Assembly (NCBI GenBank): GCA_030668875.1
Contig: DAOVER010000010.1
Coordinates: 50,916-82,915 of the forward strand
From: Candidatus Heimdallarchaeota archaeon
GTDB taxonomy: Archaea > Asgardarchaeota > Heimdallarchaeia > Heimdallarchaeales > Heimdallarchaeaceae
Reading direction: 5' to 3'
DNA: 32,000 nucleotides
Made by a program: the position numbers and the translations under genes. Under the pieces are notes generated by a model that saw nothing but the letters and a program-made list of their open reading frames with translations, was not told the origin of the DNA and did not search any database. How positions within the stretch are numbered: the first letter of the stretch is position 1; each line of letters starts with the position of its first letter. Below, piece by piece: positions 15,176 to 15,357 of the stretch.

Positions 15176-15357
15176 CCTAGCAAGGATTTCAGGTTCGGAA
15201 TGAGTCTGAGTGTTACCCCTTCACTATGGCCGCGACGCATCGCAACGGGTGGCTTTTCCCAAGTCCTCTCGGAACATAGTACCAAGCCCTACGTGGAAGG
15301 ACTTAACTTTCCCGACCATCTGGAACGCATCCAGATGTATCTCTGACCTTACTAGGC
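15176..15357 (-). other. Predicted 5S precursor transcript closed by a 10-bp terminal stem with BHB-like sites
   Basis: CCUAGUAAGG (15356-15347) pairs with CCUUGCUAGG (15185-15176), then an AAU bulge and a UCAG/CUGA 4-bp helix. Confidence 0.8.
15187..15307 (-). rRNA. rrf: 5S rRNA, circularly permuted gene (canonical 3' half 15307-15240, UGCG linker 15239-15236, canonical 5' half 15235-15187)
   Basis: Minus strand reads GUUAAGUCCUUCCAC...GUAC...CCGAGAGG...GGGAA...GUUGCGA-UGCG-UCGCGGCCAUAGUGAAGGGGUAACACUCAGACUCAUUCCGAACCUGAAA. Helices I-V, loop C (CAUUCCGAAC), loop E and a GNRA loop D can all be paired by hand. Length 121 nt. Confidence 0.93.

Follow-up and report, generated by a model that had tools for sequence, protein, structure and literature searches.

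A conserved leader/trailer helix with bulge-helix-bulge geometry surrounds a circularly permuted 5S rRNA gene in Asgard archaea

Introduction

5S rRNA is usually treated as an invariant, linear, and collinearly encoded molecule. In Cyanidioschyzon, the ring formed from a permuted tRNA transcript is opened again at the tRNA's native ends, which yields a linear tRNA. As outlined in PMC4267664 for Cyanidioschyzon merolae (Soma et al. 2007), the 3' half of such a tRNA is encoded first, and a leader/trailer bulge-helix-bulge site gives rise to a circular intermediate. For Thermoproteus tenax, the account of Plagens et al. (2015, eLife, PMC4731332) outlines a permuted SRP RNA gene, once reported missing, whose halves are swapped and whose functional product is a circular RNA; cleavage and function were shown there, for a case that concerns a few Crenarchaeota. 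Archaeal pre-16S and pre-23S rRNAs are circularised by EndA and RtcB at a bulge-helix-bulge in the leader/trailer stem (PMC12918454), and circular or permuted mature 23S rRNAs in archaea are outlined in PMC7758197. According to reviews and the same 2026 paper on pre-rRNAs, archaeal 5S rRNA, unlike 16S and 23S rRNAs, is not processed by circularisation (PMC12918454). In brown algal mitochondria, the ends of a permuted 5S rRNA lie elsewhere in the molecule and its helix I is closed (Valach et al. 2014, PMC4267664). Our literature search found no paper describing a permuted or circularised 5S rRNA in Asgard archaea; for permuted or circular 5S rRNA in archaea, it returned only the organelle cases and low-level, unvalidated circles from Sulfolobus and Halobacterium. 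In the closed Heimdallarchaeum genomes, 5S genes could not be predicted (PMC8813620).

The locus described here lies in a stretch of 32,000 nucleotides (the window; contig DAOVER010000010.1, positions 50,916 to 82,915) of a Candidatus Heimdallarchaeota archaeon (GCA_030668875.1). Like the T. tenax SRP RNA gene as outlined in PMC4731332, it is a structural RNA gene with swapped halves; unlike that gene, it encodes 5S rRNA, its kind is spread across most Asgard families, and in the window's genus a 33-nt hairpin insert has to be removed. As in the C. merolae tRNA genes (PMC4267664), the 3' part is encoded first, and a leader/trailer bulge-helix-bulge site and a circular intermediate are proposed, whereas the native ends of the 5S rRNA are sealed by a conserved UNCG tetraloop through which RNA contigs run. 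The arrangement of the motif in a leader/trailer stem, and the enzymes proposed to act on it, are those of the circular pre-rRNAs and of the circular or permuted 23S rRNAs, but the pre-rRNA genes are collinear with the mature RNA. The 5S gene is permuted, and joining is therefore needed to restore the continuity of 5S rRNA at helix III. The brown algal 5S rRNA shares the closed helix I and the moved ends; it differs in being organellar, in other end positions, in being permuted in the final linear product, and in having no splice-type motif or joining (PMC4267664). Finally, the second of the two processing rounds proposed below would resemble the excision of an archaeal bulge-helix-bulge intron at a 3-4-3 motif, except that this motif would be complete only after a first ligation and that the "exon" would be a ring.

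Results

The gene halves at 15187-15307 (minus strand) stand in swapped order relative to the functional 5S rRNA. The 3' two-thirds come first (15307-15240, beginning GUUAAG), followed by a tetraloop, which caps helix I at the place expected for the native 5' and 3' ends, and then by the 5' third (15235-15187, ending CCGAACCUGAAA). The tetraloop reads UGCG, UUCG, or UACG across the genus, and the UNCG cap is conserved both in the window's genus and in family f4. As a permuted order would lead one to expect, the Rfam 5S model (RF00001) scored the encoded gene at only 16.2 bits (cut-off, 38), and an Rfam scan of the window at gathering thresholds returned tRNA only, the 5S match appearing at permissive E-values with 16 bits. 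When rotated, the 121-nt sequence aligned end to end with conventional Asgard 5S rRNAs (RF00001-positive, 49-80 bits) at 48-65% identity, with canonical spacing and no gap at the junction CCUGAAAGUUAAG. No second 5S was found in this 92%-complete genome. A tRNA-Ser(GCU) gene is located at 16513-16595 of the window on the opposite (plus) strand, about 1.2 kb from the 5S unit. The features of the unit are listed below, where BHB-1 and BHB-2 denote two candidate bulge-helix-bulge motifs and the basis of each assignment is given in brackets.

15380-15386, minus strand: TTAAAAA, TATA-box-like, about 26 nt upstream of G15357 (sequence)
15347-15357, minus strand: leader (5') arm of the outer stem, GCCUAGUAAGG (invariant in 20 species)
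15343-15346, minus strand: UCAG, leader strand of the 4-bp central helix of BHB-1 (sequence, fold, alignment)
15340-15342, minus strand: AGA, leader-strand 3-nt bulge of BHB-1, predicted cut between AG and A (tRNA-intron rule)
15317-15337, minus strand: 8-bp hairpin, CAUCUGGA / UCCAGAUG with loop UGCGU (genus alignment)
15311-15314, minus strand: CGGG (CRGG genus-wide), leader strand of BHB-2 (pairing in 20 species)
15308-15310, minus strand: AAA, leader bulge of BHB-2 directly before GUUAAG, predicted cut between AA and A (sequence, alignment)
15187-15307, minus strand: circularly permuted 5S rRNA, 121 nt (alignment of the rotated sequence, RNA contigs)
15236-15239, minus strand: UGCG (UNCG-type) tetraloop closing helix I (sequence, alignment, RNA contigs)
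15189-15193, minus strand: CCUGA, helix III 3' strand and trailer strand of both central helices (sequence, alignment)
15187-15189, minus strand: AAA, trailer bulge of BHB-2, predicted cut after A15188 (sequence)
15186-15188, minus strand: AAU, trailer-strand 3-nt bulge of BHB-1, predicted cut between AA and U, after A15187 (sequence, fold)
15175-15185, minus strand: trailer (3') arm of the outer stem, CCUUGCUAGGU (sequence, fold, genus alignment)
15170-15174, minus strand: T-run directly 3' of the stem (sequence; conserved in relatives)

The sequence reads as a compact unit at 15357-15170 (minus strand) consisting of a stem, bulges, a 4-bp helix, and then the T-run, which is likely an archaeal terminator. 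The TTAAAAA motif stands at an equal distance from the stem in relatives of the genus, and this spacing, usual for an archaeal TATA box, implies a putative promoter with a transcription start that coincides with, or lies close to, the first stem nucleotide. An initial annotation of this DNA had recognised a 10-bp outer stem with one U-G pair; a terminal G-U pair can be added, so that 11 bp are formed between 15357-15347 and 15185-15175. The coordinates that it gave for the AAU bulge, the UCAG/CUGA helix (15346-15343 with 15192-15189), and the AGA bulge were all correct, and the minimum free energy fold of 15362-15170 recovered the stem, the bulge, and the 4-bp helix, with -69.1 kcal/mol and z = -3.6 (none of 200 shuffles was as stable). 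The stem is also conserved. In 20 aligned full-length loci of the genus, which have a common layout and share 81-95% identity with the window, all cells of the outer stem are paired (100%), with 12 one-sided changes, all compatible with pairing; the leader arm is invariant within the genus, so the changes can be one-sided only. UCAG/CUGA is paired in 95% of the cells, forming 4 bp in 16 of the 20 species and 3 bp in the other four, which have G.A at the first pair. The leader bulge is conserved as A-N-A (A31 and A33 of alignment A1 are invariant), and the 3-nt trailer bulge occurs at the same place in every lineage examined.

BHB-1 thus has two 3-nt bulges on opposite strands with a 4-bp helix between them. 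The inner flanking helix, which had been called imperfect, is missing altogether: AGA is followed by UA and then by a self-contained hairpin, and GAAC has no partner. BHB-1 is therefore of the relaxed bulge-helix-loop kind, whereas GUU/AAC serves as the inner helix in the loci that carry no insert. A cut after the second bulge nucleotide corresponds to the position implied by canonical 37/38 tRNA introns. The lengths calculated earlier for the circles are right, namely 154 nt for 15340-15187 and 121 nt for 15307-15187, but no cut site yielding G15307 had been named. BHB-2 supplies a predicted one that would lead to 121 nt.

BHB-2 involves the 33-nt insert at 15308-15340. In the window's genus and in some other members of the family, the leader bulge is separated from GUUAAG by about 30 nt in the order (U)R, 8-bp hairpin, RW, and CRGG-AAA. 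The hairpin is paired in 98.8% of the cells, and three of its pairs change on both sides among the 20 species. CGGG (15314-15311) pairs with CCUG (15193-15190), which means that CCUGA (15193-15189) is shared between the two motifs, CUGA pairing with UCAG in BHB-1 and CCUG with CGGG in BHB-2. CRGG/CCUG is paired in 100% of the cells of the 20 species, the G/A change giving G-U or A-U. The motif has the 3-4-3 form, and a cut after the second bulge nucleotide on each strand would give exactly 121 nt with the canonical spacing, equal to the period of the RNA described below. In the linear transcript, one strand of BHB-2 is interrupted by a 32-nt branch. In a ring derived from BHB-1, every insert-type locus would instead have a helix supplied by the hairpin at a distance of 0-2 nt from CRGG/CCUG; in about half of the species, the first one or two positions of this adjoining helix are mismatched. 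Another pairing, UCGGGA/UUCCGA, masks loop C and is present in the minimum free energy fold; it was rejected because only 86.7% of its cells are paired and because it is lost through the very changes under which CRGG/CCUG stays paired.

Subsequently, the distribution of the gene was examined. The locus was matched in 23 of 23 genomes of the genus. A pattern scan with one genome per species yielded 35 loci, mostly labelled Candidatus Heimdallarchaeota and including AB_125 and both closed Heimdallarchaeum genomes with two copies each. A covariance model of the permuted core (R1) matched at full length in 78 of the 82 genomes of the class (Heimdall-group), covering all seven families, and it matched 81 of 150 genomes of an even sample of the phylum; families f11, f17, and f20 gave no R1 match and have a conventional 5S instead (49-80 bits). 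Tandem copies also occur: one contig (G025:C18, 1440-1870, L026) carries two permuted 5S copies with a stretch of N between them, and each copy has its own stem (CUCCCA/UGGGAG and GCUUUCU/AGAAAGC). In another locus (L098, G108:C142:8210-8520), loop C contains, after CCGAA, an additional insert of about 35 nt that may be a further intron.

In the other lineages, the outer stem, 4 bp, and a 3-nt bulge on each strand again precede GUUAAG, even though the stem sequences are unrelated. Eight different 4-bp helix pairs were found, among them CGGG/CCCG, CGAG/CUCG, CCGU/GCGG, and CGUG/CACG, and the trailer strand of the central helix is the helix III 3' strand in every case. A strict motif was defined as a 4/4 helix, a 3-nt bulge, and an outer stem with 7 or more contiguous pairs, its position fixed immediately after loop C. 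It was present in 31 of 51 permuted Asgard loci (39 of 51 when one helix mismatch was allowed) and in 9 of 1020 controls with shuffled leaders. An unanchored motif finder had matched 94 of 260 shuffles and was dropped in favour of this anchored test. The recurrence of the geometry across lineages is beyond chance, and the stem is a conserved leader/trailer helix of bulge-helix-bulge geometry around a permuted 5S gene, as had been predicted in part from the window. The initial annotation had further noted that the leader UCAG (15346-15343) mimics UCAG of the helix III 5' strand (15209-15206) and had proposed a strand switch between precursor and mature folds. In agreement with this, the leader carries such a mimic or near-mimic in every lineage examined, and its 4-mer pairs with the helix III 3' strand in each of them.

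In a distant Asgard family, a locus on the minus strand (L093, G092:C1:792160-792470) reads outer stem, CGUG-AGA, hairpin, CGUG-AGA, GUUAAG. The cut motif CGUG-AGA is exactly duplicated in this family, and ligation would give a near-perfect intron-type motif. The two closed Heimdallarchaeum genomes each carry two permuted 5S copies (L052/L061 and L056/L065) with nearly the same core and different flanks; in one copy the motif is of the canonical one-step form and the hairpin lies outside it, and the other shares the nested layout of the window.

Next, RNA was considered. Contigs of four public runs were compared with 15120-15420, and two metatranscriptomes from different studies gave matches; the other two runs (X5 and X22) gave none, which counts neither for nor against a joined form. 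In both, the cover is confined to 15187-15307, and contigs join 15187 to 15307, going back 121 nt, with the position of the junction ambiguous by four letters since GAAA stands at both borders. These contigs derive from close relatives that are about 96% identical to the window and not certainly from its strain. Two of them are 151 nt long, that is, 121 + 30, which fits the length expected of a closed 121-nt cycle on the assumption that the assembly used 31-letter words. The contigs continue through the helix I tetraloop; none extends into the leader, the trailer, or the insert (15308-15340). The joined form had no match in JGI metagenome contigs, where the genomic form had 11, and none in the 82 genomes of the class with one mismatch allowed. 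RNA therefore carries joined ends that DNA lacks, with the insert gone, and the data indicate a closed 121-nt 5S product. The precise 121-nt circle suggested earlier through A15187-G15307 is in line with this junction. The 154-nt ring that had been derived from the AGA cut found no counterpart: neither its junction nor the excised 33-nt piece was seen among the contigs, which drop rare forms and, being contigs rather than reads, do not display ends, amounts, or rare intermediates.

Two proteins of the EndA family, 185 and 182 amino acids long and each with both EndA domains, are encoded in the genome; the regions of the two subunits are G000:C71:40119-40349 and G000:C2:4044-4304. One paralogue most resembles catalytic subunits of Crenarchaeota (3p1z_B, E = 4e-37); the second is more divergent. 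An RtcB gene is also present; EndA and RtcB are candidates for cutting and joining, respectively, at the 5S locus. The RtcB match (L077/L078, G000:C91:83441-86293) is split into model positions 1-50 and 49-426, about 1.5 kb apart within one open frame of 999 amino acids; the insertion looks like an intein. Asgard EndA, including that of AB_125, was reported to be an (alpha-beta)2 enzyme, with a loop that gives broad specificity and acceptance of relaxed motifs (PMC5829648).

Discussion

From the observed motif, its conservation, and the joined 121-nt RNA, we infer a series of enzymes, cut positions, and rounds as follows. The permuted 5S rRNA would be carried by a stand-alone transcript (about 188 nt) in which the stem serves as the processing helix. 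In this precursor, CUGA, the helix III 3' strand at the end of the 5S body, would pair with the leader mimic UCAG instead of its mature partner, and the resulting helix beside the 11-bp stem would form a bulge-helix-bulge site. A two-subunit EndA would cut after the second nucleotide of each bulge, and RtcB would join the ends. Where a lineage lacks the insert, GUUAAG directly follows the leader bulge, and the same cuts would give the 5S ring directly. In the window's genus, the first product would be a ring of 154 nt because the hairpin-bearing insert of about 30 nt separates the leader bulge from GUUAAG. In this ring, the freed CCUG would pair with CGGG, and the insert hairpin would become the inner helix of a second site with AAA bulges, at which a second round would remove 33 nt to leave the closed 121-nt 5S rRNA. 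Two nested rounds of this kind are the explanation that we favour, with a probability of roughly 0.55.

Several findings argue for two rounds. The geometry of BHB-1 and its CAG are kept in other genera that have different outer stems (L047/L050, L051, and L056), A15340 and the hairpin would form the inner helix of BHB-2 after cutting and ligation at BHB-1, and the unrelated family of G092 has the same nested layout. Ensemble folding likewise predicts that UCAG/CUGA is favoured in the linear precursor at 19 of 23 loci and that CRGG/CCUG rises only in the ring. Against it stand the missing inner helix of BHB-1 and its central helix of only 3 bp in four species. A serious rival, on balance unlikely, is that a single round suffices: the outer stem, the insert hairpin, and CRGG/CCUG would form a three-way junction in the linear precursor, EndA would cut within CCUG-AAA and CRGG-AAA after the second A of each bulge, and RtcB would produce the 121-nt ring at once, UCAG/CUGA being a transient or holding fold. 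This route reaches 121 nt without an unseen intermediate; it accords with the pairing of CRGG/CCUG in 100% of the genus cells against 95% for UCAG/CUGA and with the relaxed motifs reported to be accepted by Asgard EndA (PMC5829648). Copy A of Heimdallarchaeum (L052/L061) indeed has the canonical form, GUGGU-CAGG-AAA ... CCUG-AAA-ACCAC, meaning that one step is enough at least there. However, a single round leaves unexplained why (U/G)CAG and A-N-A are kept against the outer stem across genera whose stems differ, as well as the duplicated CGUG-AGA of G092. Moreover, the 32-nt branch would face the trailer bulge, and the predicted probability of CRGG/CCUG in the linear precursor is near 0 at 22 of 23 loci.

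The other alternatives to two nested rounds ending in a circular 5S rRNA concern the final form of the molecule. The 121-nt ring might be an intermediate only and be opened again at another site, such as the helix I cap, comparable to the permuted tRNAs of Cyanidioschyzon, so that ribosomal 5S rRNA would be linear. Circular pre-16S and pre-23S rRNAs are classically reopened (PMC12918454), and contigs cannot show ends or relative amounts. We nevertheless consider reopening improbable: the UNCG tetraloop conserved on helix I in the genus and in f4 is more like a stable cap than a spacer, the RNA contigs run through it, and no second processing motif is evident there, while circular SRP RNA, as outlined in PMC4731332, and circular 23S rRNA (PMC12918454) are reported to be functional. 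Still further from the data is an ordinary processing helix trimmed by other nucleases, which would leave a linear permuted 5S rRNA with ends near 15307 and 15187. Linear permuted 5S rRNAs are known in organelles such as brown algal mitochondria (PMC4267664), and the roles of EndA and RtcB at the window's locus are putative. Yet RNA contigs of two studies bridge 15187 to 15307 by a join absent from DNA, and a strict 3-4-3 geometry maintained despite sequence change would be needless for exonuclease trimming; we regard this possibility as very remote.

We tentatively propose, at somewhat less than even odds, that ribosomes of the Heimdall-group and of most other Asgard archaea use a covalently closed circular 5S rRNA, which the window's genus matures by two nested splicing rounds. 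If so, the first ligation would build the substrate of the second round, and an intron would be excised from a ring. 5S rRNA is encoded in permuted form by the closest archaeal relatives of eukaryotes. This encoding explains why 5S genes were not found in the closed Heimdallarchaeum genomes (PMC8813620), and likewise the "missing 5S" in genome quality scoring. The closed 121-nt product indicated by the RNA makes ribosome function with a ring-shaped 5S rRNA testable, and the same now applies to the action of EndA and RtcB in ordered, nested rounds and to the route from an intron-bearing to a permuted 5S gene.

With regard to that route, one 5S gene of conventional order (L035, G014:C117:8277-8414, minus strand; 48 bits) is interrupted at the corresponding site of helix III by an insert of about 26 nt. 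Its contig is probably a contaminant in a metagenome-assembled genome of the window's genus. The insert is part of an intron-type motif, GAA-CACG-GAA-[CAGUCU AUCG AGACUG]-CGUG-AAA-GUUAAAC, and suggests that intron-bearing and permuted 5S genes are interconvertible.
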